12,085 bases of DNA from Chitinivibrionales bacterium (GCA_038247415.1 JBBRUX010000072.1:1-12085); one strand, 5' to 3'; positions 1-11,831 are shown, counted from the first letter of the stretch. Translations and numbers: made by a program. The notes: generated by a model not told the origin, from the sequence alone.

Positions 1-66
1 CCCACGATGGATGGCGAGTTCGTGTGCGAAGACCACTTCGGCACCACCAAAGGCGTTGCCGGTGGC
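1..66 (+). other. fhcD: Internal fragment (22 codons) of a formylmethanofuran--tetrahydromethanopterin formyltransferase gene, probably foreign or chimeric sequence at the window end
   Basis: Frame +1 reads PTMDGEFVCEDHFGTTKGVAGG, matching the Ftr/FhcD segment as I recall it (P-x-M-[DE]-G-[ED]-F-x-x-E...G-[VI]-[AG]-G-G-N). Hand count gives 42/66 GC and 17/22 codons ending in G/C, unlike the rest of the window. Similarity stops where the conserved Asn is expected. Confidence 0.7.
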
Positions 67-392
67 ATTACAAGATTACAGCGCATAGGTTCAAGATTTA
101 CCACTTCAGAGCCAATTACAATATCGCACCGCCGAACCTTGGTTTGCCAGACATCAATATCTATAGGCAGAATATCGGTGATACCAGCATCTCGCAATGA
201 GGCCTCAATCGTTTTTTCGGCAGCAATTCCAAATGGAGTTCCAGACAGCCGATGAGGCGATACCGTAAGATTGGCAAAATCTTTTTCGTACAGCGATTGA
301 GCTACAGCTGGCGCAACCATGGGCTTTTCGGCCATAGCGGCGGTAAGTACAAATGCAAGTATACTAAGAGCAGTCCAATAGAAACGTTTCAC
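3..392 (-). CDS. 5' part of a secreted or membrane protein with an M28-peptidase-like N-terminus (probably a large peptidase-like/FtsX-permease fusion); runs off the window, and native sequence probably ends near nt 51-67
   Basis: Not in the ORF track. The GTG start at 392-390 overlaps the TGA stop of the ATPase (GTGA), with a GGAGG RBS 6 nt upstream. The frame is open to the window edge: MKRFYWTALSILAFVLTAAMA|EKPMVAPAVAQSLYEKDFANLTVSPHRLSGTPFGIAAEKTIEASLRDAGITDILPIDIDVWQTKVRRCDIVIGSEVVNLEPMRCNLVMPPATP... It has a Sec signal peptide (AMA cleavage site). HRLSGT-x-AAEKTIEASLRDAG resembles the R-x-x-G-[ST]...A-A-x-[YW]-I...G opening of M28/M20-fold peptidases. The family call is inference. Confidence 0.8.
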   Translation of the reverse strand, partial: MKRFYWTALSILAFVLTAAMAEKPMVAPAVAQSLYEKDFANLTVSPHRLSGTPFGIAAEKTIEASLRDAGITDILPIDIDVWQTKVRRCDIVIGSEVVNLEPMRCNLVMPPATPLVVPKWSSHTNSPSIV

Positions 393-1138
393 TTAGATCC
401 TCCTATGTGTCCCACTCTGATCTGAATGTTACCGCGTTCGTCAACCTTTTCAATTTGACCATCGCGAATCCAGAACATGCGATCACATACATTGAGAAGG
501 CGAAGATCATGCGTTGCGCAAATGACCGTCACGCCTTTTTCTTTGTTAATTTTTTGCATTACTTCTAGAATTTCGGCACCCGTTTTAAGATCGAGATTTC
601 CTGTTGGTTCATCGCAGAGCAAAACTTTAGGATTATTGCACAACGACCTTGCGATAGCAACACGCTGTTGTTGCCCCCCCGACATTTCCAGAGGCCGATG
701 TGACCAGCGTTCTTCTAAACCCACAAGCTTTAATAAATCCATGCCACGGCGATGCGCTTCTTCGGGAGGAACCCCCGCAAAAGACATTGGCACCGTAACA
801 TTTTCGAGCGCTGTCATATATTTAATGAGATTAAAACTTTGAAAAATATATCCGATTTTCCTGCACCGTAAAAATGCCAACTCATCTGCACTCAATTGCG
901 CAATATCTACTTCGTCAATAAGTACGCGCCCTTTTGTGGGAGCATCAAGCGCTCCAACCATATTAAAAAAAGTACTCTTGCCAGAACCAGACGGCCCCAA
1001 TATAGAGATAAATTCGCCACGATAAATGGTTGCATTAACGCCCCGCAACGCATAGGTTGTTGCATCATTCATACCATATTTTTTTTCGAGCCCAATGGTA
1101 CGAATAATAACCGGTTTCATAGTTTCTTGAGTGCTCAT
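389..1138 (-). CDS. ABC transporter ATP-binding protein, LolD/MacB/FtsE (type VII) family
   Basis: 249 aa with Walker A GPSGSGKST, Q-loop IGYIFQSFNL, signature MSGGQQQRVAIAR, Walker B/D-loop VLLCDEPTGNLD and H-loop ATHD. GGAG RBS upstream. Confidence 0.95.
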   Translation of the reverse strand: MSTQETMKPVIIRTIGLEKKYGMNDATTYALRGVNATIYRGEFISILGPSGSGKSTFFNMVGALDAPTKGRVLIDEVDIAQLSADELAFLRCRKIGYIFQSFNLIKYMTALENVTVPMSFAGVPPEEAHRRGMDLLKLVGLEERWSHRPLEMSGGQQQRVAIARSLCNNPKVLLCDEPTGNLDLKTGAEILEVMQKINKEKGVTVICATHDLRLLNVCDRMFWIRDGQIEKVDERGNIQIRVGHIGGSK

Positions 1139-1144
1139 AGCTCT

Positions 1145-2617
1145 TTACTCCACACGCATAGCTTCCATCGGTGCAAGTCGTGCAGCAGCCCACGAGGGTG
1201 CAATAGCTGCAAGTGCCGCGATGAGAATACCAATAAAAAACGAAGTGATTGAAACAAGGAGGATATCGGATGCAATAATATTTTCGAAGGCCAGTGCCCC
1301 ATAGGTTGACCATGCGCGAAACAAAGAAAGTGCAATGCCCAGAACAATTCCAATAAGGCTGCCTGCAACGGCTTGAAAGAACGCTTCAAAAACAAAGAGC
1401 GTCATGATAAACCCGTCCATGGCGCCAATACATTTCATGGTGGCAATTTCGCTGAACCTATCGGTTACCGACATGAACATAGTATTAGCAATTCCCACAA
1501 CGCACACTAAAAAAGAAACCAGCACGAGCCAACGAGTTTTCTCGGGCAGTTCAAAAATTGAGTTGCGCGGTTTTATTTCTTCGGTGAGTTCTAATTTTTG
1601 TAATTGCGCGTCGCGAGAATAAAACATTGACATCGTCGTAATACGATTTGTTGTAAGGTCTGTTGCAATGCCAAGCGATTTAAAGGCTTCGAGCATTGAT
1701 TCTGCCCTTCGTACTGTTTGCGGCCAACGAACAATAGTATCGGTTGTTAAATCACGAATGTTTTGGATTCCAATCATTCTGCTCAAACGACCACGAATTT
1801 CTGAGGTTTCGGTTACCTGCAAAAGCTTTTTCTTGTCTGCTTCTCTGGTAGCAAGCACAGAGAGTTGGCTATAGAGAGGTGCAGTAAGACTAAAACCATT
1901 GGCACCAAGGGCACTTTTAAAGGATTGAGATGGTGCAATAAATGCAGTATTGATAGCCTGCGAATCGAGTTCTAGTGCGATTGCAGCGATAGCAGTTTGT
2001 TGACCTTGTGCTATTTTATTCCAGACATCCACCGTGCGAGGGAGTTCGTCTGAAACAAATCGTTTAAAAACGGCCATGTCATTAAGTGGGGGCTTGAGTT
2101 TAAGGGAAACGATTTTTTCCTCAAAAACAGCATACCGCTGAGCCGATCCTAAATCAACCAACACCCCCAAAGGATCGGCATCACCAACAAGCATTGCACA
2201 CGAAGAACGAGGAATTTCAGAAAAATAGTGTATACTTTTCTGAATTTTCTCCGAAGAACTTTTGCACAATAGAACTTCTTCGTTTGTTAAGACACCAAAT
2301 GTGCGATACTCGTGTTGACGAAGTGTATCTAACCCCGCATACACCTGTGCAATTGACAGCTGCTGATCTGGTGTAGAGAGCCTCGAAACCCATTCGTTAA
2401 GAAGCCTGTTTGTAGATATTTCTTTTGAAATGGCATAATCGGTATCATGAGAAATGATTCCATAGCTGAGCATATAGGAAAGAAATGCAACTGCCAGCGA
2501 CAGAATAAGTACCGTGATCGCTGATCTGTTCATGCGGTAATACATGCCTGAGAGCGTAAGGACTAAAGCACGCACAGGGCTAAGCCGCGCCTGCTCTTTT
2601 ACTGTAATAGGCTTCAA
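1145..2617 (-). CDS. FtsX/MacB-like ABC permease (type VII) with a large extracytoplasmic domain
   Basis: 490 aa: N-terminal TM (ITVLILSLAVAFLSYML), ~300-aa soluble region, and a C-terminal FtsX domain (VSFLVCVVGIANTMFMSVTDRFSEIATMKCIGA...FVFEA...APSWAAARLAPMEAMRVE) with 3 TMs. The TTG start overlaps the upstream TGA stop (TTGA) and has an AGGAGG RBS. Confidence 0.93.
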   Translation of the reverse strand: MKPITVKEQARLSPVRALVLTLSGMYYRMNRSAITVLILSLAVAFLSYMLSYGIISHDTDYAISKEISTNRLLNEWVSRLSTPDQQLSIAQVYAGLDTLRQHEYRTFGVLTNEEVLLCKSSSEKIQKSIHYFSEIPRSSCAMLVGDADPLGVLVDLGSAQRYAVFEEKIVSLKLKPPLNDMAVFKRFVSDELPRTVDVWNKIAQGQQTAIAAIALELDSQAINTAFIAPSQSFKSALGANGFSLTAPLYSQLSVLATREADKKKLLQVTETSEIRGRLSRMIGIQNIRDLTTDTIVRWPQTVRRAESMLEAFKSLGIATDLTTNRITTMSMFYSRDAQLQKLELTEEIKPRNSIFELPEKTRWLVLVSFLVCVVGIANTMFMSVTDRFSEIATMKCIGAMDGFIMTLFVFEAFFQAVAGSLIGIVLGIALSLFRAWSTYGALAFENIIASDILLVSITSFFIGILIAALAAIAPSWAAARLAPMEAMRVE

Positions 2618-3009
2618 TGCAAGGCCTCCTGTGGGTTTGTCCCCACCAGAACAATGAGCCCGCGTCTGGTTATAAGACGCAGGAATTCCATGATACTTAA
2701 TCGAGACTCGTGAAATGTCAATTTATGCGCCTTAGCGAACGCTTCGACAATAATTTCGACTGATGTTTTTCCATCACACATATTCCAAACTTCGGTACCA
2801 AGAACGTCCAGCTCAACAGCACGTTCTCTGCTAAATTTAAAAAGCCACGAAAAAGGGGGACCCATAAACCACTTGGTGCGCAAAGGGACATACACACGTA
2901 TCGTTTTTATAGACTCTTTTTCCCACCGAACAGATTCATTGCGAACCGGCACTGCAGACAAGAGCGCACTCAGTGATAGCGAGCCTTCTGGATTGAGCTT
3001 GTTTTCCAT
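2614..3009 (-). CDS. PqqD family / RiPP recognition element (RRE)-fold protein, stand-alone
   Basis: The motif ELDVLGTEVWNMCDGKTSVEIIVEAF...LTFHESRLSIMEFLRLITRRGLI is the typical PqqD winged-helix pattern (L-[DN]-x-x-[GA]-x-x-[IV]-W-x-x-x-D-G-x-x-[TS]-V...FL-x-x-L-x-x-x-G-L-I). I moved the start from 3090 to the ATG at 3009 (131 aa), 4 nt after the upstream gene's stop, which avoids a 77-nt overlap. Confidence 0.88.
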   Translation of the reverse strand: MENKLNPEGSLSLSALLSAVPVRNESVRWEKESIKTIRVYVPLRTKWFMGPPFSWLFKFSRERAVELDVLGTEVWNMCDGKTSVEIIVEAFAKAHKLTFHESRLSIMEFLRLITRRGLIVLVGTNPQEALH

Positions 3010-3013
3010 AGTG

Positions 3014-3871
3014 CTAAGAACCCTGACAACATGCAATGGCAACATCCGTATGGTCAAACATCCGCTTTGGATACGCCATCGAATGCACATGATACAGCGA
3101 TTTTTCGGATGGACATATCATGATGCGATCGTTACGCACAATACGCTGCCCAACCATCCAGCGAGGATGAAAAACACGCTCTTTGCCACAGAACAGAGTA
3201 CATTCATGATTATTATGCCGCTCCCGGAAGAATCTTCCCCGGATAGCACCTATTTCTTTACGTAAAAACGACTCTTCATCACCATCAAACCAGGCATCCG
3301 TCATACCAATCCGGCGCACCACACACCTACTATTATCATAAGTAAATGTAAATGTTGCATCCGCTGGTTTAATATCTGTTTCTGTTAAAAGCCAGTCTTT
3401 ATTAACAGTAAAGGAACAATGAAACGCCTTGTACAAAACTGTGGTCTGATTCTTATTTCCAGCGCTGATCGATTCGAATATCTGGCGCTCGAGAGTTTGA
3501 TCGACGCCGTGTGGCCACATTATGATGCAATCGATCCAATAGTTATTTTTTGCATCAAAGAAACCACCTCGAGTTACCATTGCCGTACCCATGACACGCC
3601 GGTAAACTTGCCACTGCTTAATTTTAAAGAACGGTTCGAGCACTGCATCGGGGAATGACGTTGTATCCCGAGCTATAAAATCGTCGAATATTCTTTTGGT
3701 GTCGGGTTTTTTCGAACATTTCGTCCACCCCAGCTGCATTCGTTGCTGATACCGGTCCACAAATGTCAATGATCCTATCGCTGGCTTAATCCCATGCTTG
3801 CTGATTTCCCAATCGAGTGGGACTTCGCAATGAAATCCCAGCCAATCGATGTGAGTTGCGGTATTCTGCAT
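3014..3871 (-). CDS. Hypothetical soluble protein with an internal duplication (possibly two PsbP/Mog1/DcrB-like domains)
   Basis: 285-aa ORF filling the gap between neighbours with 5-nt and 4-nt spacers. No signal peptide or TM is evident. A repeat is visible at offset 139 aa (V17/V156, DW20-21/DW159-160, IKPA28-31/IKPA167-170, TF36-37/TF175-176). The fold is inference. Confidence 0.85.
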   Translation of the reverse strand: MQNTATHIDWLGFHCEVPLDWEISKHGIKPAIGSLTFVDRYQQRMQLGWTKCSKKPDTKRIFDDFIARDTTSFPDAVLEPFFKIKQWQVYRRVMGTAMVTRGGFFDAKNNYWIDCIIMWPHGVDQTLERQIFESISAGNKNQTTVLYKAFHCSFTVNKDWLLTETDIKPADATFTFTYDNSRCVVRRIGMTDAWFDGDEESFLRKEIGAIRGRFFRERHNNHECTLFCGKERVFHPRWMVGQRIVRNDRIMICPSEKSLYHVHSMAYPKRMFDHTDVAIACCQGS

Positions 3872-3876
3872 ACGTT

Positions 3877-6339
3877 CTACGGAAATACTTTATAGCTAAG
3901 AGGAACAAGACCGGTTGCCAAATGGTAAATGGTTCCCACCAATGCCCACGTCAATGCAGCCAGCAAATCACCTGCAATTAGTCCAAGCATCAGAGGTTTT
4001 GCTCCCCGATATCCCTTTACACCCGACATTTTGACAACTGCCGACTTAATAGCCCATCCGATTAGAAACGATGCAGCAAAAAACATTCCGGGGTTTGTTC
4101 CCCATACTAAAAAACAAACTGGATGCAAAGGCCACCAGGCAAATACCAAGCGCAAAAGTGTCATGCCTACAGACAATACAACCCCTGCAATTCCCCACCC
4201 TACATAGAGCATATTGGGATGAATTGCAGCAAATCTCTCGAGTCCCGAAACGGTCATCGATTTTCCGATTTCATTATAGGCAGACAATTCGGAAATTGCA
4301 GTTGATGCTGCATCAAAAGGATACTTTGGTAAATACTGCGTTACCCATCCATCAGAGAAATTAAGGCCATGGTTATACTGAAAGAAAAGTGTAGCCCCAA
4401 GTGCAATAAAAAAACCAACCACAAGAATAACACCTATTAAAAGCGCCATCCTCGTTGAGGCATGTTTTTGCTCGGTTGGAGTAGTCATGTAGAGTCCGTT
4501 GGTAAGAAAAGGCATAATCGCCTCTCTAGGGTCAACCACAAAGACCGTACTTACAAAAACAAGGATGAGATACGCTGTTGGACCAATAGCTGAAGTGCCA
4601 AAGAGTACTGTTATAACGCCTACCGGAACCCACATGGGCTGCAAAAAAAACATTCCGGTTTCAACATTAATACGAGACATAACAATAAAAAGGAGAAAAA
4701 CAAAAAGAACAAACGTTGTGCCCAGTACCCAATCGAGCCCAGCCTGCATGAGAAGAACCACGCACAATGCTCCGCAAATAGCAAGCAAGCGTGTTGCCCA
4801 GACTGCATTTGCAGGAACCTCAGATGACCTTTTAAAGCCAAGTGACGAAGAAAAAACCCGAAGATAGTAATGCCGACCGACATAAAACATCATGAATGCT
4901 GTACCAAGATACGCACCAAATCTGAGCATATTCCCTTCTCGCGCAGCAATAAATTCGTTACTGAAGGGAACACCTATTGAATTAACAAAAGAATACAACA
5001 CCAAAAAAAGTATGCCCGATAGACCAACACTCAGCGACACATCGACACTCAGAAAAAATGCAAACCCCACAATAGTAGGAACAATCGTTGGCACAAAAAC
5101 CATATACGAAAAAGCAAAAGTCTTTGCAACAGGAAAAAGTTTGGTTATGGGCCAAAAATCAAACGACAATGGGATTTGAATAAAATTAGGAAACCATACA
5201 TGCGTCCCATTAATGATATGAATAGCAAAGACCGCACCTAAACCATACCAAAACAACTTAGAACGAACCACGTTAGAAATACCACTGCCAGCATTAGTGA
5301 CCGTAATTTCCTGAACAAATCGCGCAATGGGAAATGCAAGCAATTCCCGCTTCCACTGGGGTTGCACAATAATGGCCATGCACAGCGAGGCAAGACCCAA
5401 AAGAATTGCAAGCCCTCCCCAAAACCAGAGTGTTGGCAACCATACCTTCCAAGGAATATCCTTGAGCCTCACCTGTTTTTTATCACTACCAGACATGAGG
5501 GCCATAAATGCTGGATTTTGCACATCACCATTTGCCAACATCATGTTGCTAGCAGGAGCAAGGGGAAGAATATCTCCTACAAAAATTGCGTCGATACATT
5601 GACGCTGTACATTTATGCGATCGTGCTCGGTAAGCGAATCGATTGAACGCGCGCTTTCTCGAACATGTGCTGCAAGCGGAAGCGATGCAAAAACATCTGC
5701 ATTATAGAATTGGGGATTTGCAATAATGTCATCGAGAGAATTGAGAAGATCTGCTTTATCTGCCTGCTCAAAACGCCCGACTGCCATTGCCTGCTTTAAT
5801 GTACCACGCGTTCTTTCGGGCAAAAATTCCCATACCCTCCGCACGGGAGTAACTGTTGAATCTTCGGAAACGGCGATAAGTTTTTTTCCAACATTTTCCC
5901 AATTTTGAATATGCCCTTCGCCAAGAAGACCCGAGACACCAGGTAGATAGGAAAGAACATGATTTGCTTGCCAACCAGCTTCGGTCTTGACCATATTAGC
6001 CGGTGTAGTAATGAGCGCCGAAAATGATCTGAAAAAATTGGAGCCAGGCCATCCACATACCACTAATCCTAAAGCAGCAATAAGAGCGAGCTCGGAAGGC
6101 TTAAGCAGCGGCCCTTTAAAGAGCTTGATAAGCGGATTTAAAACTATAAGAAGTACCAAGAGCGGAGCAAAAACTGCAACAGGGAAGTGGTTACCGATAA
6201 GAAACGTTTGCTGAATAATATGATCGTTAAAATAGGTAAAAATCGAAATGCCAACTGCCAGCAAGATTCCGAGTACTACTGCGCGTATAGTCATGGGTCG
6301 CACTGCGCCTTTCTTTAACAAATTCGAAAACAGTGGCAA
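3877..6339 (-). CDS. Multipass membrane protein, OPT/YSL-like putative peptide transporter (DUF6785/DUF6784 type)
   Basis: 820 aa with many hydrophobic segments. The N-terminal TIRAVVLGILL and PSELALI resemble OPT-family openings. Recalled DUF6785/6784-type motifs are present: IPWKVW, QWKRELLAFPIA, SRINVETG, WWPLHPV, SFLIGWAIKSAVVKMSGVKGYRGAKPLMLGLIAGD. The start is either TTG 6339 or ATG 6294. Confidence 0.85.
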   Translation of the reverse strand: MPLFSNLLKKGAVRPMTIRAVVLGILLAVGISIFTYFNDHIIQQTFLIGNHFPVAVFAPLLVLLIVLNPLIKLFKGPLLKPSELALIAALGLVVCGWPGSNFFRSFSALITTPANMVKTEAGWQANHVLSYLPGVSGLLGEGHIQNWENVGKKLIAVSEDSTVTPVRRVWEFLPERTRGTLKQAMAVGRFEQADKADLLNSLDDIIANPQFYNADVFASLPLAAHVRESARSIDSLTEHDRINVQRQCIDAIFVGDILPLAPASNMMLANGDVQNPAFMALMSGSDKKQVRLKDIPWKVWLPTLWFWGGLAILLGLASLCMAIIVQPQWKRELLAFPIARFVQEITVTNAGSGISNVVRSKLFWYGLGAVFAIHIINGTHVWFPNFIQIPLSFDFWPITKLFPVAKTFAFSYMVFVPTIVPTIVGFAFFLSVDVSLSVGLSGILFLVLYSFVNSIGVPFSNEFIAAREGNMLRFGAYLGTAFMMFYVGRHYYLRVFSSSLGFKRSSEVPANAVWATRLLAICGALCVVLLMQAGLDWVLGTTFVLFVFLLFIVMSRINVETGMFFLQPMWVPVGVITVLFGTSAIGPTAYLILVFVSTVFVVDPREAIMPFLTNGLYMTTPTEQKHASTRMALLIGVILVVGFFIALGATLFFQYNHGLNFSDGWVTQYLPKYPFDAASTAISELSAYNEIGKSMTVSGLERFAAIHPNMLYVGWGIAGVVLSVGMTLLRLVFAWWPLHPVCFLVWGTNPGMFFAASFLIGWAIKSAVVKMSGVKGYRGAKPLMLGLIAGDLLAALTWALVGTIYHLATGLVPLSYKVFP

Positions 6340-6381
6340 TACATATCACCAGATACTCTGCGGGTGTCTATACTGTTGCAA

Positions 6382-7467
6382 TTAGGCTCGTGTAAGCGCA
6401 GCCCCCGTTGCCCCGTCAAAAAGATGCAAAGCCGAATATGGAGCATATAATGTGATAGTATCACCAACTTTTGATGGTGATCCATTGAGGATTTTAGCTA
6501 TAATAGAGGCTCCACAGGTTGCAACATACAAAAGAACTTCAGATCCGAGCGGTTCACATAAATCAACGCTGCCAGGAAGCTCGATAGAATCCGGAGTAGC
6601 GCTCATCTGGAGGTCTTCGGGCCTAATTCCTAAACAAACACTTTTACCATCGAGTTTAGAAAGTTGCGATCGCAAATGCTCAGGAATGGGAATAGTTACT
6701 TCACCATTCTTCATTGAAGTTCCAGAAACGACATAATCGATAAAATTCATGGGTGGAGATCCAATAAAACCAGCAACGAATTTATTGGCGGGAGACCGGT
6801 AAATCTCCATGGGAGAGCCTATCTGCTGAATCTGGCCGTTTTCCATAACAACAATGCGATCACCCATGGTCATAGCTTCTACCTGATCGTGCGTAACGTA
6901 AATCATGGTGGCAGACAACCGCTTGTGCAACAAACAAATTTCTTTTCTCATTTGAACACGCATTTTAGCATCGAGATTTGAAAGCGGTTCATCAAAGAGA
7001 AAGACTTTGGGTCTTCGTACAATTGCTCTTCCAAGTGCAACACGCTGCCGTTGTCCACCGGATAATGCTTTGGGTTTTCTTTCGAGATAGGGCGTTAATC
7101 CGAGTGTTTCTGCAGTTTCACGTACCCGAGCTTCAATCTCTTTTTTAGGGTATTTACGCAACACGAGCCCAAAAGCCATGTTGTCGTACACACTCATGTG
7201 CGGATATAAAGCATAATTTTGAAATACCATAGCAATATCACGATCCTTGGGGGAGAGATCGTTCATACGGCTTCCACCAATATGTAAATCGCCTTCGGTG
7301 ATATCTTCGAGTCCGGCTACCATACGAAGTACTGTAGATTTCCCGCACCCGCTTGGTCCAACAAATACTACGAATTCCTTATCGGAAATCGAAAGCGAAA
7401 ATTTGGAGACTGCAGTTACTGCTCCGTCGTATATTTTTTTAACGCTCTTAAACGTTACGTCTGCCAT
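6382..7467 (-). CDS. ugpC: Carbohydrate (CUT1) ABC importer ATP-binding protein, MalK/UgpC/MsmX family
   Basis: 361 aa with Walker A GPSGCGKST, RDIAMVFQNYALYPHM, signature LSGGQRQRVALGR, VFLFDEPLSNLDAK, YVTHDQVEAMTMGDRI, FVAGFIGSPPMN, and a C-terminal TOBE/OB domain (GIRPEDL, EPLGSE). The symbol denotes the family only; the substrate is not determined. Confidence 0.95.
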   Translation of the reverse strand: MADVTFKSVKKIYDGAVTAVSKFSLSISDKEFVVFVGPSGCGKSTVLRMVAGLEDITEGDLHIGGSRMNDLSPKDRDIAMVFQNYALYPHMSVYDNMAFGLVLRKYPKKEIEARVRETAETLGLTPYLERKPKALSGGQRQRVALGRAIVRRPKVFLFDEPLSNLDAKMRVQMRKEICLLHKRLSATMIYVTHDQVEAMTMGDRIVVMENGQIQQIGSPMEIYRSPANKFVAGFIGSPPMNFIDYVVSGTSMKNGEVTIPIPEHLRSQLSKLDGKSVCLGIRPEDLQMSATPDSIELPGSVDLCEPLGSEVLLYVATCGASIIAKILNGSPSKVGDTITLYAPYSALHLFDGATGAALTRA

Positions 7468-7477
7468 ATCGGTCTAC

Positions 7478-8308
7478 TTACCCTTTCACGGCTCCGGATG
7501 AGAGGCCTTTGACAAAAAGACGCATGGTAAAAAGAAAAATGAGTACCAACGGAATACTTGAAATGGCATAGCCTGCCATCATTTGACCCCACAATTTAAC
7601 GTACTCGCCATCAAGCTTGACAAGACCGGCAGCAAGAGTGAGCAGCTTGTCGTCACGAATAAGAATCATGGGCATGATAAAATCGTTCCATACGCCAATA
7701 AATTGCAGAATGGCCAACGTAGAAACAATTGAACCAGACATTGGTAATACAATAGTAAGGATCTGCTTAATAGGACCCGCGCCGTCGATTTCTGCTGCAT
7801 CAAAGAGATCTTTGGGGATTTCTTCGATAAAATTACGCAAGATGTAAATTTGAACAACTTGCCCACCTGCAATACCCAGTACCACCAAGGCCATGAGTGA
7901 ATTGAGGAGATTCATGCTCTTGATAATCATGAATAGAGGAATAAGGTTAGCTACGCCGGGCATAAGCATGAGAACAAGGAAAAAGTACCAAAGGAACTTT
8001 GAAAAAGGCGCTTTATACCGAGCAAAGAAATAGGCAGCAGGAATGGTAAAGCAAAACGTTAGCACCACTGAAGTAATAGCAACAAAAATGGTATTAAAAA
8101 TATAATCTCGTACAATATTCCATCCTACAAGCCAATTTTCGAAATGCAGGGGCAACCCAAAGCCAAGAGGATTAACTGCAAACTGCGCATTTGTTTTAAA
8201 ACTTATGGCAAACATCACATACAAAGGAAAGAACGAAAAGAATAAAACAGCAAGTATGCAAATATGCTTGAATACTTCACGAACAGAAAATCTTTTACGT
8301 TCTATCAT
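7478..8308 (-). CDS. Carbohydrate ABC transporter permease (MalG/UgpE type)
   Basis: 276 aa, ~6 TMs, EAA loop IPKDLFDAAEIDGAG...IVLP, WNDFIMP, C-terminal FVKGLSSGAVKG. AAGGA RBS. Confidence 0.95.
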   Translation of the reverse strand: MIERKRFSVREVFKHICILAVLFFSFFPLYVMFAISFKTNAQFAVNPLGFGLPLHFENWLVGWNIVRDYIFNTIFVAITSVVLTFCFTIPAAYFFARYKAPFSKFLWYFFLVLMLMPGVANLIPLFMIIKSMNLLNSLMALVVLGIAGGQVVQIYILRNFIEEIPKDLFDAAEIDGAGPIKQILTIVLPMSGSIVSTLAILQFIGVWNDFIMPMILIRDDKLLTLAAGLVKLDGEYVKLWGQMMAGYAISSIPLVLIFLFTMRLFVKGLSSGAVKG

Positions 8309-8344
8309 CAGATGTCCTTGGGGTACCGGAACTTACCAAAAAAA

Positions 8345-9295
8345 TTATTTATCTACCGTAACCAGTCTGTTATTTATTTCGGTGAGAATGAGAATAAATG
8401 CAAACATGATAATTCCAATTGCACATGCATATCCAGCGCGCTGATTGACAAAAGCATTGATAAACATATAGAGTCCGGGAACCATGGCTTTTCCATTTGG
8501 TCCGGCCTCTTTGCCAAAAAGAACTAGAATAAGCGCATAATCCTGCAATGTACCAATAATCATCATGACTAAATTGATGCGAACCTGACTCATGATAAGC
8601 GGAAATTCTATTCTCAAAAGCTTCTGAAACGAAGAAATACCATCTAGATCGGCTGCCTCATAAATGCTTTGATCGATATTTTGGAGCCCAGCAAGATAAA
8701 TCAGCACACCCACAACACCAACCCAGGGAAAGCCCCAAAAAATAAGCGACGGGATGATGAGATTGGTATCACCAAGCCAGATCGGGTTTATGCCCGCAAC
8801 AAATATTCCCCAGTGAAAAAAAGAATCTACCGAACACAAAAGCTGCATGATGCCTGTTTTATGGAGCAATAAATTAAGCATGCCAGCGTTGGAATCGAAG
8901 AAAAATTTCCAGATAAGAAGCGAAACCATTCCGGGAATAATCATGGGTACAACAAAGAGCACCTTGTAAACATATGCAGCCTTCTCACTCTTAAGTCTAT
9001 TTATAACAACAGCAGTGAGAACAGAAGGAATCATTTTAAAAATGTTAAAGAGAACAAGAATGCCTATTAATCCGAACCCACCCCATAAAACTGGGTCCTG
9101 AAATGCCTCTGCAAAATTTGCCAACCCTACAAAATCGTTAATATAATCGCCATTCCAGCGAAAAAATGCGTGATAGATACCGCTTATGGCAGGCGCATAG
9201 GAAAAAAGAGACACAATCAAGATGCTGGGCAGCACCAAAAGATAGATATACCAATACGCAACCAGACGTTTACGGGTAATAATTCGTGCTATCAT
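8345..9295 (-). CDS. Carbohydrate ABC transporter permease (MalF/UgpA type)
   Basis: 316 aa, ~6 TMs, FVGLANF motif, EAA loop YLAGLQNIDQSIYEAADLDG...RIEFP, GYACAIG. ATGA overlap with the binding-protein stop. Confidence 0.95.
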   Translation of the reverse strand: MIARIITRKRLVAYWYIYLLVLPSILIVSLFSYAPAISGIYHAFFRWNGDYINDFVGLANFAEAFQDPVLWGGFGLIGILVLFNIFKMIPSVLTAVVINRLKSEKAAYVYKVLFVVPMIIPGMVSLLIWKFFFDSNAGMLNLLLHKTGIMQLLCSVDSFFHWGIFVAGINPIWLGDTNLIIPSLIFWGFPWVGVVGVLIYLAGLQNIDQSIYEAADLDGISSFQKLLRIEFPLIMSQVRINLVMMIIGTLQDYALILVLFGKEAGPNGKAMVPGLYMFINAFVNQRAGYACAIGIIMFAFILILTEINNRLVTVDK

Positions 9296-11025
9296 GGTTT
9301 GCCGCCTTGGGGCGCAGGTGGAACATTTACAAAATCATCACGAAACATTTTATATTGCAATTCATTTTTTATAGCACGGGTTCGTTCATTATCCTGCGTC
9401 ATTGCATTCATAAAGTCGTATGAAAACGCTTGCAAGCTAGCCCAATATCCAGCATACCCATCTACCGAATTCTGTAAGCGCAGCAGCACCTTGGCCTCTT
9501 GGGCGGTATCGGCGGAGATCTCATGCAGAAGCGACAAGTGAGAAATTGTCTGTGCGGCAGAGGGCAAACTATTACGCAATGTCATGAGTGAACTATTGCA
9601 ATCTTTAAGAGCTACCGGCAAAAATTTTGAAGAATAAGAATTTACATAAGAATCAAACGTTGTTTTTCCGCTAAAATATTCCCATCTTAGCTGAAAACTC
9701 AAGTTATCTGTTTCATTGCCGAAAGTCATCGAGCTGCCGACGTTAGGATATCCTTTATAGGAAGGTTCAAACCCTTGCATAAAATCTATGTTTTCTGTTC
9801 CACGCACCGTACACAGCCATCCGATTTTTTTACAAAAGGTTTCGGCCACTTTTTGAGAACTATAAAAGCGAAGAAAATCGATAGCAATATCGGGGTGCTG
9901 AGAAAATCTGCACACAGCAAAAGGCATATCAAAACTCTTTGATTCCGCAGCATAGCCTTCTACATATTTTCCGTAGACAGCATCGGTGCTATCGGGGAGC
10001 GGAAACCTCATAATACCAATGTCAAAACCAGATTCTTTTGCCTGCCCAACCTGACTATTCATGTCCCAAGACCATGTAGGAATAATCACTGCGCGCTGTT
10101 GCGCAAATGAGAACGCAGCATCTTGCCGATCACGCGCCATAAAGCCAGGCTCTAGGAAGGGAACGATTTCCTTGGAAAGTTCACTTGCGGCTTTAGCTCT
10201 CTCACTTGCAAAACTAAACTTTCCTTCGACCCAGCTCGTAAAGCCTTCGATCCCAGGATCGCCATCGGCATTATAATTTCGATCGATACTATCCAGGCCA
10301 ATAGTCCTGGTTAGTGCCCCACCAAGATCGCTTGCAATTCCTTCGAATTGATAACGAGCTGCAGCAATGGGATAAATTTTTTGTTTGGTGCTATCAGCAT
10401 AATGCTGAACGCCTTTGCAAAATGCAATAAATTCGCGAAATGTTTGTGGTGGAGTTTCTTTGCCTGTAATTGCTTTCATCAGCTGTTTGTTGTAGGCAAG
10501 GCGCTGCGAAACACCCGTTATTCCTATAGAATAATAATCGAGGTTATTGGGATCCCAATTGTATTCGAGCTCATGTTTAAACGTGTGAACCCAGGGAACT
10601 CCTTCGAGATTAGTCCCCACGTTATATTCATTGGGCTGTTTTAAATATTGTCCCAACGGATAGAAATACCGTGCCGTAACGTTATCGAGTGCACCATAGG
10701 CTCCAAGTTGGCCAAATTCGATAAGATCGGGTGCTGTTCCACCAATGAGCTGCGTTATAAGAAACTGACGGTAAGCTTTATCGGTAATGGGAATTTGAAT
10801 AATTTTCACATCGGGGTGCAATTTCTCATATGCTGCAATAGTTCCTGTGACCGCCTCTCGAAAACCACTCTCAAGCTGCCAATGACAGATCCGGATTACT
10901 TTTTTGTTAGTCCAGACGATTTCTTTACCAATCGTAAATGTATTGACAATCGCCCCAATATAGGATGCGACAACCAGGCCAATACCCAAATACGAAAGCC
11001 AATTGATTGGTTTTTCACGGGCCAT
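9292..11025 (-). CDS. Extracellular solute-binding protein family 1 (sugar ABC transporter), N-terminally membrane-anchored, with a C-terminal extension
   Basis: 577 aa with an N-terminal hydrophobic helix lacking a lipobox Cys. Family-1 SBP motifs are YEKLHPDVKI, GGTAPDL, LAYNKQL, FAQQRAVI, FDIGIMRFP and AIDFLRF. It is adjacent to two permeases and an ATPase. TAATG overlap with the upstream gene and AAGGAG RBS. Confidence 0.92.
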   Translation of the reverse strand: MAREKPINWLSYLGIGLVVASYIGAIVNTFTIGKEIVWTNKKVIRICHWQLESGFREAVTGTIAAYEKLHPDVKIIQIPITDKAYRQFLITQLIGGTAPDLIEFGQLGAYGALDNVTARYFYPLGQYLKQPNEYNVGTNLEGVPWVHTFKHELEYNWDPNNLDYYSIGITGVSQRLAYNKQLMKAITGKETPPQTFREFIAFCKGVQHYADSTKQKIYPIAAARYQFEGIASDLGGALTRTIGLDSIDRNYNADGDPGIEGFTSWVEGKFSFASERAKAASELSKEIVPFLEPGFMARDRQDAAFSFAQQRAVIIPTWSWDMNSQVGQAKESGFDIGIMRFPLPDSTDAVYGKYVEGYAAESKSFDMPFAVCRFSQHPDIAIDFLRFYSSQKVAETFCKKIGWLCTVRGTENIDFMQGFEPSYKGYPNVGSSMTFGNETDNLSFQLRWEYFSGKTTFDSYVNSYSSKFLPVALKDCNSSLMTLRNSLPSAAQTISHLSLLHEISADTAQEAKVLLRLQNSVDGYAGYWASLQAFSYDFMNAMTQDNERTRAIKNELQYKMFRDDFVNVPPAPQGGKP

Positions 11026-11831
11026 TATGGCTGCTCCTTAAGAGCATCAATACGCATCTGACAATAGGTAATGCGCTGATCGGTAGGATATGATTCAATT
11101 AATTTATTGTAATATTTGAGAGCGGAAGCTTTGTCGTGAAGGATCTTTTCTGAAATATACCCAATCTGGTACACCACAGTAGGTCTACGCCGAATATTAA
11201 TAACGCCAACACTATCGGCCATAATAAGCTGATCTCTGCCAAGCTCGTAATTTTTCATTCCCAAAGCAAGTGAAGAATTAAAGAGATACATGGTACTGGC
11301 AAAAGCATTTGAGGGATACTGAGCGCAATAGGCCTTAAGAAAATCTATTGAGGCAAGAAAATCTTTTTTTGTTTGTGTGTAAGAAAGTAAATAGGCCGTC
11401 TCCAGAGCAGCTTCATGCGCATAGAGAGAGCCAGGATAACGAGAAAGAATGTTTTTCAGCCAGAGCGAGGCAGAATCGAAGCCTGCCCTATTTTGAGATC
11501 TGTATGCCTTGGCGATATTTAAATAGAGTGCAGGCGAAAGGAGATTTGTGTCACCCACTTGAGCAAGTACTTGTTTGTAGAGCGGTAGAGCTTTTTTAGC
11601 ATCACCACCAGGAATACGATACTGTACAACAAGAGCCTGACCATACCGTGCCATTTGTATGTCTGGTTGGGAGGCGGTCTTTTGACTAATAACAGTGCCA
11701 AAAAGGCGATAGGCGCCAGAAAAATTCTGATAATCGTATTCGCGCCAGGCATCGCTAAGCATGGTGGCTTGCGGAGCTACGAAAGCACCAAAGCAGAGAA
11801 AACACAAAAGTATTTTAGCGCAAAAAGTCAT
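11025..11831 (-). CDS. Secreted tetratricopeptide-repeat (TPR) protein
   Basis: 268 aa with a signal peptide-like start (MTFCAKILLCFLCFGAFVAPQA). It has repeated helical units with small/aromatic TPR patterns (AKKALPLYKQVL, ALYLNIAKAY, VYQIGYI, ALKYYNKLI) and three BamD/CpoB-like turns (SRYPGS, AQYPSN, ESYPTD). Confidence 0.88.
   Translation of the reverse strand: MTFCAKILLCFLCFGAFVAPQATMLSDAWREYDYQNFSGAYRLFGTVISQKTASQPDIQMARYGQALVVQYRIPGGDAKKALPLYKQVLAQVGDTNLLSPALYLNIAKAYRSQNRAGFDSASLWLKNILSRYPGSLYAHEAALETAYLLSYTQTKKDFLASIDFLKAYCAQYPSNAFASTMYLFNSSLALGMKNYELGRDQLIMADSVGVINIRRRPTVVYQIGYISEKILHDKASALKYYNKLIESYPTDQRITYCQMRIDALKEQP

Follow-up and report, generated by a model that had tools for sequence, protein, structure and literature searches.

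The closest described relatives of the locus considered here are the type VII ABC systems, exemplified by MacB, LolCDE, FtsEX and YbbAP-TesA, in which an FtsX-type C-terminal permease region follows a large periplasmic domain and the ATPase belongs to the LolD/MacB/FtsE clade. To our knowledge, and as far as the partial accounts consulted extend, characterised systems of this type export, extract, activate or act on extracytoplasmic partners and none of them imports. The OPT family provides a second point of reference; its proteins are importers and the known ones are secondary carriers that work alone. Elements of both kinds are brought together in a conserved eight-gene operon for what is probably an inner-membrane machine. 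A literature search found no paper on the system or on its combination of components, in agreement with the first-pass annotation of this DNA, which knew of no experimental characterisation.

The window analysed is a stretch of 12,085 nucleotides that makes up one whole contig (C72) of a Chitinivibrionales assembly (G000). Six of its minus-strand ORFs, all co-oriented and tightly packed, represent genes 1-5 and the start of gene 6 (Table 1). The first and second lie 5 nt apart, the second and third 4 nt (taking 3009 as the start) and the fourth and fifth 6 nt, whereas the third overlaps the fourth, and the fifth the sixth, by 4 nt, so that the earlier description of six co-oriented genes no more than 6 nt apart or overlapping is borne out by the ORF coordinates. 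The lower boundary at position 67 is not the end of a gene; the last ORF has no stop codon and runs off the contig at base 3. The contig ends within the module, the remainder of which lies on a second contig of the same assembly (C77), where the rest of the giant gene is followed by genes for a 685-aa OPT-like permease and a second ATPase (ATPase 2). The join is documented by a single 1626-aa orthologue of the giant protein, residues 43-124 of which are matched by the window contig (48-293) and residues 136-1615 by C77:5243-9718. Since the last ORF is the N-terminus of a giant FtsX permease that continues on C77, the module has eight genes rather than six, with two predicted OPT-fold proteins and two ATPases. 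The operon encodes two type VII (MacB/FtsX-type) ABC units, each beside a polytopic permease of predicted OPT fold: the 490-aa FtsX permease and ATPase 1 beside the DUF6785/DUF6784 protein of 820 aa, and the ~1,630-aa FtsX permease and ATPase 2 beside the 685-aa distant OPT relative. Two soluble proteins, one of tandem PsbP/Mog1-like fold and one PqqD/RRE-like, have their genes between those of the 820-aa protein and the 490-aa permease. The family or fold originally assigned to each of the six window proteins holds in Pfam, NCBIfam, fold and profile matches.

Table 1. Genes of the module in the window
Product	Coordinates	Strand	Basis and remarks
820-aa DUF6785+DUF6784 polytopic membrane protein, predicted OPT fold	3877..6339	-	TTG start; Pfam, AF2 model, Foldseek
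285-aa soluble protein, tandem PsbP/Mog1-like	3014..3871	-	no Pfam/NCBIfam family; model and fold matches
131-aa PqqD/RRE-like protein	2614..3009	-	PF05402; ATG at 3009 as in orthologues
490-aa FtsX/MacB-type permease	1145..2617	-	TTG start; PF02687
249-aa ABC ATPase 1, LolD/MacB/FtsE clade	389..1138	-	NCBIfam LolD; motifs
First 130 codons of ~1,630-aa giant FtsX permease	3..392	-	no stop; continues G000:C77:9721..5231

The architecture of the operon and the co-inheritance of its genes are hardly in doubt, and the arrangement is far beyond what chance would produce. The same order was found in all seven loci from relatives and is kept in Chitinivibrionales, Phycisphaerae, other Planctomycetota and Polyangiaceae, with variant arrangements in Oligosphaera ethanolica DSM 24202 and Verrucomicrobia LW23. 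When loci were seeded with DUF6785 and limited to the 62 with at least 3.5 kb downstream, PqqD and FtsX genes were present in 26, in 23 of which the gene for the 285-aa protein was also found, and wherever a module locus extended 9.8 kb or more downstream (20 loci) the giant and OPT-like genes were there as well. Metagenome loci seeded with the PqqD-like gene gave a similar picture: an FtsX gene adjoins it downstream wherever there is room (17/17), the 285-aa gene lies upstream in 9/10, and a DUF6785 gene is found in five of the six with room upstream. In five out of five further genomes the PqqD-like and OPT-like genes lie 7-8 kb apart. Conserved co-occurrence, for which a neighbourhood analysis had been suggested, is therefore shown by relatives, DUF6785-seeded and PqqD-seeded loci alike. 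The suggestion that similar gene sets exist in the PVC superphylum proved correct (Phycisphaerae, Lentisphaerota and Verrucomicrobia); its extension to archaea gained no support, there being no archaeal carrier among the loci found.

Membership of the type VII ABC group is indicated by the FtsX domain, a TM1-loop-TM2-4 topology (from hydropathy) and an ATPase of the LolD/MacB/FtsE clade. PF02687 matches residues 365-482 of the 490-aa permease (E 4.7e-15, 56.1 bits against 25.5), and its hydropathy profile, with a transmembrane segment at 29-47 and a hydrophobic cluster at 364-472, points to TM1, a periplasmic domain of ~300 residues and then the C-terminal FtsX helices. ATPase 1 has, by eye in the translation and in an alignment with ATPase 2, to which it is 49% identical, intact Walker A, signature, Walker B and H-loop motifs, and matches LolD best in NCBIfam (7.7e-66), with DarD, FtsE and MacB also matched. 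Its LolD score of 221.7 bits is under the cut-off of 307.75 and the best NCBIfam match of the 490-aa permease, lolCE at 54.3 bits, is far below 362.45; LolCDE equivalog identity is not supported by these two scores, and the module falls far under the cut-offs of every type VII ABC equivalog. As with LolC and LolE, there are two different permeases per operon. Unlike the known systems, however, the module has two ATPases rather than one, encodes no MacA, LolA or EnvC-type partner, and has as its constant companions two predicted OPT-fold permeases and the RRE/PsbP-like pair; in addition, one of its permeases, ~1,630 aa long, carries a pseudo-M28/PA ectodomain as part of the same chain, together with an additional cluster of hydrophobic helices.

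The giant permease accounts for the protein that had been taken for a secreted M28-peptidase-like protein. The M28-like character is seen in the orthologues and in the C77 continuation, and the supposed secreted protein turns out to be the ectodomain of a second FtsX permease, the 130 codons in the window covering a signal peptide or anchor and the start of the PA/M28-like region. The FtsX domain (PF02687) lies near the C-terminus of the giant and its orthologues (34.8-43.6 bits), and in the giant of locus L017 hydropathy places a transmembrane segment at 1051-1069, a loop of ~270 residues and helices at 1338-1449, which correspond to the FtsX unit. Pfam Peptidase_M28 scores 20.2 against 21.3 bits in the giant itself and 28.1 and 37.6 bits in orthologues, where the match is confined to the first 77-84 positions of a 193-position profile. 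A profile of the ectodomain matched 2ek8_A, an M28 aminopeptidase with a PA domain, at 2.9e-5, nicalin at 0.007 and nicastrin at 0.2. When the consensus is aligned to 2ek8_A, at the positions which we take to be metal ligands and catalytic residues (H-x-D, the bridging D and E-E), the His of HHD is replaced by N, DD by P/G and EE by Q/A, the later ligands (D, H) falling outside the alignment; across 14 orthologues most have N, Y, P or A in the same columns and two have H. The ectodomain thus appears, by alignment, to be a degenerate PA/M28 domain in which metal and catalytic residues have been replaced, and the processing of a substrate by this peptidase-like domain, as first envisaged, is unlikely for that reason. 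The presumed metal and catalytic positions are also replaced in nicastrin and nicalin, from which the giant differs in being bacterial and fused to an FtsX permease. In having a hydrolase-like partner the module recalls YbbAP-TesA, as far as the part of the published account available shows (PMC12646458).

Pfam places the 820-aa protein in DUF6785 (PF20581, E 4.7e-73, 246.8 bits against a cut-off of 25) and DUF6784 (PF20580, E 3.8e-21, 75.6 bits against 26.4), and gives no match to OPT (PF03169). Its AF2 model (pLDDT 93.0, pTM 0.92) was matched by Foldseek to the Yellow-Stripe-like transporter barley YS1 (7wst_A, E 2.1e-6; 7wsr_A, E 7.8e-6; both with prob 1.00 and TMt 0.60-0.64), the next match reaching only E 0.079, and the predicted fold as that of HvYS1 holds. 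It differs from the OPT family in this lack of a sequence match, in its DUF6785/DUF6784 membership, in a helical insert of ~170 residues (about 120-290 in the model) and, unlike known OPT proteins, in being encoded inside an ABC operon. The 685-aa protein is probably a second, distant OPT-like permease; its Pfam OPT match (6.8e-5, 22.2 bits) spans most of the profile but is below the gathering score of 25.8, and two of nine orthologues match OPT at E<=0.01, the best at 1.6e-7. Profile similarity between the 685-aa family and DUF6785 was not significant (hhalign probability 12.6%).

The 285-aa protein, which has no family in Pfam or NCBIfam, is predicted to consist of two tandem PsbP/Mog1-like alpha/beta domains, an assignment that holds on its model (pLDDT 93.4, pTM 0.88). 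Residues 2-154 gave structural matches of Z 9.2-13.2 over 106-139 residues, including TplEi/Tli4 (13.2), BT_1490 (12.5), PsbP (12.4) and Mog1 (11.5), and residues 147-283 matched LpqN (10.1) and PA94 (9.6); Foldseek gave prob 1.00 to TplEi and PsbP. Both halves therefore share the fold common to TplEi/Tli4, DcrB, LpqN and the Eag/SciW chaperones, and TplEi/Tli4 also has two of these domains in tandem, but identity to these relatives is only 6-15% and the 285-aa protein has no signal peptide, whereas most of the relatives are extracytoplasmic. Its family numbers 1374 representatives at E<=0.001, and most orthologues carry a CC motif at the C-terminus. The third gene could be read from a longer ORF (3090..2614, 158 aa), which would overlap the 285-aa gene by 77 nt; 27 orthologues, with AVPVRN ... 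FHEAR motifs in common, start near the 3009 ATG. Its product resembles PqqD/RRE proteins by a Pfam match (PF05402, 29.0 bits against 23.4) and by a conserved helix-rich C-terminal half, and is unlike them in an N-terminal extension with invariant motifs of its own and in having as its partner the tandem PsbP/Mog1-like protein, with which it sometimes forms one chain. Of the top 150 representatives of the 285-aa family, four have a PqqD-like domain at the C-terminus, and one of these fusions, P0094, gave alignments with both window proteins (3e-54 and 5e-40). Because the two are fused in other organisms, the earlier suggestion that they are cytoplasmic adaptors gains support, and hydropathy revealed no hydrophobic segment in either. 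The complex modelling that had been proposed lends weak support to this pair: the prediction scored 0.58 against 0.25 for the best control, three runs agreeing in at least 95% of contacts with a partner pLDDT of at least 71. The mark applied to such scores is reached by 116 of 157 solved complexes and by 2 of 215 mismatches, and scores that reach it without exceeding 0.60 came from only 18 of those 157 complexes and from both mismatches.

Our own guess, to which we would attach a probability of about 0.4, is that the parts form one assembly for the ATP-assisted uptake of an oligomeric nutrient such as a peptide, glycopeptide or oligosaccharide. The pseudo-peptidase ectodomain of the giant would serve as periplasmic receptor, ATP-driven FtsX movements would pass cargo to the OPT-fold channels, these would supply the transmembrane path that is missing from FtsX proteins, and on the cytoplasmic side the RRE/PsbP-like pair might bind either the cargo or the tail of a membrane subunit. 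That the core assembles physically is rather probable; that transport is inward rather than outward is a tentative choice, at somewhat less than even odds. A cytoplasmic PqqD/RRE protein would be no less suited to a peptide on its way out than to one on its way in, and characterised type VII ABC systems, as generally known and in the partial accounts referred to, do not import. Word-based searches, which are weak evidence, turned up no fused OPT-FtsX or longer PqqD forms. A bolder proposal, which must be regarded as speculative and rather doubtful, is that of a hybrid transporter class in which OPT-fold channels are fed or gated by an ATP-driven FtsX motor whose pseudo-peptidase dome is receptor-like, and in which the RRE/PsbP-like module captures the translocated oligomer in the cytoplasm. 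If this were true, diderm bacteria would be able to use ATP to transport large oligomers of peptide or glycan and could do so with no classical binding-protein importer.

An important consideration is whether all eight proteins belong to one machine, since DUF6785 is the loosest member of the module and no fixed part of it, contrary to the original placing of the 820-aa protein. Module-linked and solo DUF6785 copies are intermingled in a tree of 71 homologues, where well-supported branches force at least 9-10 changes; the gene stands alone in 36 of the 62 loci with room, in carbohydrate contexts of its own; and it is absent from Oligosphaera locus L125, where the seven other genes are present, and at the other end or convergent in loci L126 and L127. 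These observations would fit a secondary transporter that works independently and whose gene has often simply settled next to a core of the 285-aa/PqqD-like pair, FtsX permease, ATPase, giant FtsX permease, OPT-like permease and second ATPase. This we consider somewhat unlikely, given that the gene is adjacent, co-oriented and separated by a few bases in the 26 module loci of that sample (from Fibrobacterota, Planctomycetota and Myxococcota), accompanies most PqqD-seeded loci with upstream room, and in LW23 and Oligosphaera copy 2 still lies within 3 kb of the core.

Export or extraction, which we regard as unlikely, would reverse the proposed uptake: the RRE/PsbP-like pair would bind an endogenous peptide or lipid-linked cargo, the OPT-fold protein would take it across the inner membrane, and the FtsX units would then remove it, by expulsion or extraction, from the outer leaflet or the periplasm in the direction of the giant ectodomain, after the manner of MacB, LolCDE and YbbAP-TesA. 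Such a route would conform to the outward or extracytoplasmic action of all the type VII ABC systems characterised in the accounts consulted, to the known binding of newly made peptides by the PqqD/RRE fold (from NCBIfam names) and to the presence of Eag/SciW-type chaperones and the envelope-biogenesis proteins DcrB and LpqN among PsbP/Mog1-like relatives. A single copy in the source assembly and in four of five further genomes, with two in Oligosphaera ethanolica, also resembles a housekeeping or envelope device, but the module is present in only 10 of the 41 genomes of the order sample and is therefore not core envelope machinery. The window and the scanned flanks revealed no gene for a precursor peptide, a modifying enzyme, a MacA-like adaptor or an outer-membrane duct, and OPT-family transporters are, as noted above, importers.

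A sensory or regulatory role is improbable. The FtsX-ABC units would then carry out no transport themselves but act as flux sensors of the BceAB type or activators of the FtsEX type, signalling to a histidine kinase or periplasmic enzyme what the ectodomain has bound, and an inactive M28-like ectodomain does resemble the receptor subunits nicastrin and nicalin. A hybrid histidine kinase is encoded directly downstream of the module on C77 and hybrid kinases lie divergently upstream in two relatives, but such neighbours were seen only in Chitinivibrionales loci and none in the scanned Phycisphaerae and Polyangiaceae flanks, and if nothing were transported, two conserved OPT-fold permeases would be difficult to account for. 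A RiPP or PQQ-type maturation and export cluster around the PqqD/RRE protein is highly improbable, for although its Pfam score exceeds the cut-off and weak NCBIfam matches are named as GeoRSP, lasso and PQQ chaperones, the three NCBIfam scores fall well short of their cut-offs (28.9 against 100, 20.4 against 80 and 18.5 against 46), no maturase or precursor partner occurs in the window, conserved module or scanned flanks, neither the window nor the conserved module showing a radical-SAM enzyme, a cyclase, a protease or a short ORF for a precursor, and gaps of no more than 6 nt are too small for a precursor ORF.

As to the genomic surroundings, the flanks of the complete module are not conserved and are only partly carbohydrate-related. 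Many solo DUF6785 paralogues adjoin carbohydrate genes, their neighbours including GH94, an MFS sugar transporter, a sulfatase, a GH63-like gene and GH2, GlcNAc 2-epimerase together with Asparaginase_2 and a DHDPS-family gene, and AraC/sugar-binding regulators and a sugar ABC importer; the hint of uptake that these give attaches to the solo paralogues and not to the module copy. In the window no terminator-like site was found in the 42 nt that separate the 820-aa gene from a preceding CUT1-type sugar ABC operon on the same strand, and this proximity, like the importing habit of OPT proteins, is a further hint of uptake.

The long ORFs of the window, identified by ORF calling and translation, lie without exception on the minus strand, and the spacing between consecutive module genes (+5, +4, -4, +6 and -4 nt) bears out the first-pass annotation's description of six tightly packed, co-oriented genes. 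That annotation had placed the lower bound of the region at position 67, but the window is an entire contig (C72) and so there is no gene end at 67, the sixth gene being truncated by the assembly. The same gene had been read as encoding a secreted M28-like protein; alignment to relatives indicates that it is actually the truncated N-terminus of a giant FtsX permease, the window's 130-residue fragment aligning with the N-terminus of a ~1,620-aa protein found after the ATPase in relatives. A search of the window's own assembly identified positions 5243-9718 of a second contig (C77) as residues 136-1615 of a 1626-aa orthologue (49% identity), the window fragment corresponding to residues 43-124 of the same orthologue. 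The ends of C72 and C77 face one another with no sequence overlap, and thus about ten residues of the giant are unassembled. The giant on C77 is followed by genes for a 685-aa membrane protein, a second ABC ATPase (269 aa, 49% identical to ATPase 1) and a hybrid histidine kinase. Since C77 carries this second part and the same order is found in relatives, the unit comprises eight genes. At one locus (L014:1073-5937, equivalent to L030) the giant is read as two ORFs with a 4-nt overlap, encoding 865 aa (the M28-like part) and 756 aa (the FtsX part), which is either a natural split or an assembly frameshift.

Module genes carried by the window
Feature	Coordinates	Strand	Basis
820-aa protein	6339..3877	-	ORF
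285-aa protein	3871..3014	-	ORF
PqqD-like protein, 131 aa	3009..2614	-	ATG at 3009 agrees with orthologues' starts; longest ORF from 3090
490-aa FtsX permease	2617..1145	-	ORF
249-aa ABC ATPase	1138..389	-	ORF
Start of giant gene	from 392, off base 3	-	ORF without stop

The loci of seven relatives have the order DUF6785 (the 820-aa protein), 285-aa protein, PqqD, FtsX and ATPase. The ~1,620-aa giant comes after the ATPase in each of the six loci long enough to show it (the contig of the seventh stops inside the FtsX gene), and in those six an OPT-like gene follows the giant, with the second ATPase next wherever the contig continues. Homologues of the 820-aa protein came from sources named as Chitinivibrionales (the closest matches), Phycisphaerae and Verrucomicrobia, and DUF6785 was present in 10 of 41 genomes sampled from the order, the window's own included, among them all six other genomes of its family. 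A single-protein pattern search of genome contigs with the 820-aa protein yielded no confirmed relatives among 51 pattern matches; narrower alignments (A2 and A6) served to collect loci. When species-representative genomes were scanned by pattern, 595 DUF6785 relatives were confirmed; the 78 loci kept are from Chitinivibrionales/Fibrobacterota, Phycisphaeraceae and other Planctomycetota, Lentisphaerota, Polyangiaceae/Myxococcota, one Brocadiaceae and one Verrucomicrobia. The first-pass suggestion of similar gene sets in the PVC superphylum is therefore matched by carriers in the Phycisphaerae, Lentisphaerota and Verrucomicrobia, but that of archaeal occurrence is not, archaea being absent from the 595-relative scan.

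Neighbours in the kept loci were called by ORF calling and jackhmmer with each module protein, and the conserved co-occurrence proposed for these genes was upheld. Among the 62 DUF6785 loci with at least 3.5 kb downstream, PqqD and FtsX lay directly downstream in 26 (23 of them with the 285-aa gene) and 36 were solo; where at least 9.8 kb was available (n=46) the module was present in 20, every one of which had the giant and the OPT-like gene. Metagenome contigs seeded with PqqD provided 19 loci (two of which, L109 and L110, are apparently one sequence filed twice), with FtsX downstream in 17/17 that had room, the 285-aa gene upstream in 9/10 and DUF6785 upstream in 5/6. The exception, L122, has a PqqD-FtsX pair within positions 854-4952; the 907-aa ORF and the two short ORFs ahead of it fit neither the DUF6785 nor the 285-aa profile. 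In a Brocadiaceae MAG (L069:2-9751) the contig opens with a DUF6785 fragment, and about 6 kb lie between this and p285-PqqD-FtsX-ATPase, reflecting either an insertion or a different arrangement.

The label "OPT-like" originally given to the 820-aa protein is supported at the level of fold, the sequence itself having no match to Pfam OPT. The protein belongs to Pfam DUF6785 (4.7e-73) and DUF6784 (3.8e-21), with no NCBIfam model, and an AlphaFold2 model built from a 34-sequence alignment (pLDDT 93.0, pTM 0.92) had as its sole significant Foldseek target in the PDB barley Yellow Stripe 1 (7wst_A, E 2.1e-6; 7wsr_A, E 7.8e-6; both with probability 1.00 and TM 0.60-0.64 on the target; next E 0.079). 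The 685-aa membrane protein on C77 matches positions 134-616 of the 623 in Pfam OPT, below the threshold (E 6.8e-5, 22.2 vs 25.8 bits), and its family profile found only a chance match in the PDB. Homology between this family and DUF6785 is not claimed, as hhalign gave a probability of 12.6% (E 0.0023) on nothing beyond a short E-(K/L)-L-P-(F/Y)-P motif. The 490-aa protein has the expected FtsX domain at its C-terminus, its best NCBIfam models (LolC/E, ADOP, MacB and FtsX) all falling far under their cut-offs, and the assignment of the 249-aa protein as a LolD/MacB-type ABC ATPase agrees with its nearest models, LolD, DarD, FtsE and MacB.

In relatives the giant has an FtsX domain near residues 1340-1455, and some of these proteins also match Peptidase_M28 near residues 230-330. 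Hydropathy of the orthologue at L017, a relative's locus, suggests that an N-terminal signal/anchor and an outside domain of ~900 residues are followed by clustered hydrophobic helices (about 925-1003) and a further helix (1051-1069); a loop of ~270 residues then leads to the FtsX helices (1338-1449), and the protein ends in a tail of ~170 residues. Of the membrane elements, the last four fit one MacB-like unit; a second FtsX unit was not supported, the region at about 925-1069 having no FtsX match even at E<=1. The N-terminal 600 aa of the window organism's own giant gave no matches to PDB sequences at E<=1, and an ectodomain profile matched the PA-domain M28 aminopeptidase 2ek8_A (E 2.9e-5), nicalin (0.007) and nicastrin (0.2). 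The HHD, DD and EE of 2ek8_A, which we take to be the M28 metal and catalytic residues, face N-Y-D, P/G and Q/A in the giant consensus, a pattern common to 14 orthologues, with His retained in two. Because these residues are replaced, the ectodomain is most likely a non-catalytic, receptor-like dome, and the suggestion that it processes a substrate is weakened.

The 285-aa protein has no family match in Pfam or NCBIfam. Its model (pLDDT 93.4, pTM 0.88) shows a pair of PsbP/Mog1-type alpha/beta domains in tandem, confirming the duplication noticed at first pass; the first half matches TplEi/Tli4 (Z 13.2), itself a tandem of such domains, BT_1490 (12.5), PsbP (12.4), Mog1 (11.5), SciW (10.1) and DcrB (9.9), and the second half LpqN (10.1) and PA94 (9.6). 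An exhaustive profile search of a library of 1.84 billion cluster representatives produced a family of 1374 representatives at E<=0.001, 801 at 1e-10 and 394 at 1e-30. The 131-aa protein exceeds the Pfam PqqD gathering score (29.0 vs 23.4 bits), in keeping with its designation as a stand-alone PqqD/RRE. The module was rejected as a RiPP or PQQ cluster, every PqqD-type NCBIfam equivalog cut-off being far above the score of this protein.

That these two proteins act together is best seen in fusions: among the best 150 representatives of the 285-aa family, four (422-445 aa) have a C-terminal PqqD-like domain (E about 1e-50). In one of these, P0094, residues 7-279 align to the window's 285-aa protein (3e-54) and residues 320-429 to its PqqD-like protein (5e-40). 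The fusions are predicted metagenome proteins, and a read-through artefact is unlikely because they fall in four separate 50%-identity clusters. Complex prediction with the window's two proteins is weaker evidence than the fusions, giving a score of 0.58 against 0.25 for the best control. Of 157 solved complexes 116 reach the mark, as do 2 of 215 mismatches, but only 18 of the 157, and both mismatches, do so at 0.60 or under; with contact agreement between runs of at least 95% and partner pLDDT of at least 71, the prediction lends weak support to a contact. Word-based searches, which constitute weak evidence, found no longer forms of either the PqqD-like or the 685-aa OPT-like protein. By hydropathy neither the 285-aa nor the PqqD-like protein has a hydrophobic segment, the aligned orthologues have no N-terminal signal-like stretch, and both proteins are probably cytoplasmic. 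Most 285-aa orthologues have a conserved Cys-Cys (or single Cys) near the C-terminus (window 3014-3030, alignment A3), and P0094 retains the motif immediately ahead of its linker. In two Phycisphaeraceae modules (L053:10022-13171 and L091:9962-13095) DUF6785 leads directly to PqqD and the 285-aa gene was not detected; those genomes therefore either do without the protein or encode it at another site.

DUF6785 is the member least firmly tied to the module, and that it works alone, apart from the other components, is a serious rival explanation. In a maximum-likelihood tree of 71 homologues the module-linked copies are interspersed with solo ones, the well-supported branches requiring at least 9-10 changes between the two states, and some metagenome-assembled genomes contain several solo copies. 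The neighbours of solo copies (42 proteins at 17 loci, many without a family) include GH94 with an MFS sugar transporter, a sulfatase, a GH63-like hydrolase, GH2, a GlcNAc 2-epimerase with Asparaginase_2 and a DHDPS-family gene, AraC/periplasmic-binding-type regulators and a sugar ABC importer. Solo DUF6785 does not imply a genome lacking the core, since PqqD-like and 685-aa-type genes were found 7-8 kb apart in 5/5 genomes tested. One locus of Oligosphaera ethanolica DSM 24202 has p285-PqqD-FtsX-ATPase-giant-OPT-like-ATPase and no DUF6785; another (L126, G041:C1:3334500-3353500) has ATPase, PqqD-like, giant, OPT-like and DUF6785 genes without those for the 285-aa protein and 490-aa FtsX; and Verrucomicrobia LW23 has the seven genes with a convergent DUF6785 2 kb off. 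These variants identify the conserved core as PqqD (usually with p285), the FtsX/ATPase units and the 685-aa OPT-like protein.

The region upstream of the module, 6382-11831 on the minus strand, encodes a sugar ABC importer of the CUT1 type, made up of a UgpC/MalK-like ATPase, a pair of BPD permeases and a binding protein of 577 aa. The binding protein is unusually long, with a weak match to NgcE (chitobiose), and a 268-aa TPR/YbgF-like protein is encoded alongside. The importer stops 42 nt ahead of the module and the gap (6340-6381) contains no terminator-like site, making co-transcription possible. Promoter-like sites in the window were not above chance (19 vs 23.2 +/- 5.7 in shuffles) and terminator-like sites numbered 20 (12.6 +/- 4.0 in shuffles). 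No such importer was found beside the module in the seven relatives' loci, and the 37 proteins encoded ahead of 13 complete modules were heterogeneous and pointed to no common function.

The module has a defined set of parts that are inherited together, and the preferred interpretation is that they take up, with the help of ATP, an oligomer of the peptide, glycopeptide or oligosaccharide type. The pseudo-peptidase dome of the giant would serve as a periplasmic receptor, cargo would be handed to the OPT-fold channels through FtsX mechanotransmission and the RRE/PsbP-like pair would work on the cytoplasmic face. This direction is favoured, on indirect evidence, because OPT proteins are importers, because DUF6785 paralogues occur in carbohydrate contexts and because of the sugar ABC operon 42 nt upstream. 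A role in export or extraction is a serious rival, since a cytoplasmic RRE and all type VII ABC systems so far characterised would agree better with it.

No published account of the system was found in full-text literature searches, subscription journals lying outside their coverage, an outcome that agrees with the earlier statement that no experimental characterisation was known. No paper on DUF6785 or DUF6784 appeared in full text by name or by Pfam/InterPro accession, the PqqD/FtsX/M28 combination retrieved only an unrelated paper from the text covered, and among the matches listed none paired OPT with type VII ABC systems, or FtsX/MacB with the yellow stripe/OPT superfamily. The general view is that ABC systems of the FtsX/MacB type lack a route for substrate across the membrane and that OPT-type carriers act singly; the two are always encoded together here across phyla, and both assumptions would be challenged if the parts assemble. 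The module also includes a peptide-recognition (RRE) domain away from any RiPP pathway and a probably dead peptidase dome, and its elucidation would assign a function to DUF6785/DUF6784 and to the unnamed 285-aa family. As the carriers include polymer-degrading Chitinivibrionales, Phycisphaerae and Lentisphaerota, it may bear on the uptake or handling of large substrates. The system is accessible at the bench since there are cultured carriers, namely O. ethanolica DSM 24202 and, by record names, Verrucomicrobia bacterium LW23 and Phycisphaerales bacterium AB-hyl4.

Hybrid histidine kinases (HisKA-HATPase-receiver) flank the Chitinivibrionales modules, none being seen in the flanks scanned from other phyla. 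On C77 (L027) the kinase gene is downstream of the module at 427-2007 on the minus strand; the copies in two relatives, which have PAS domains, are divergent and upstream, at L017:4515-6641 and L018:1358-3475.
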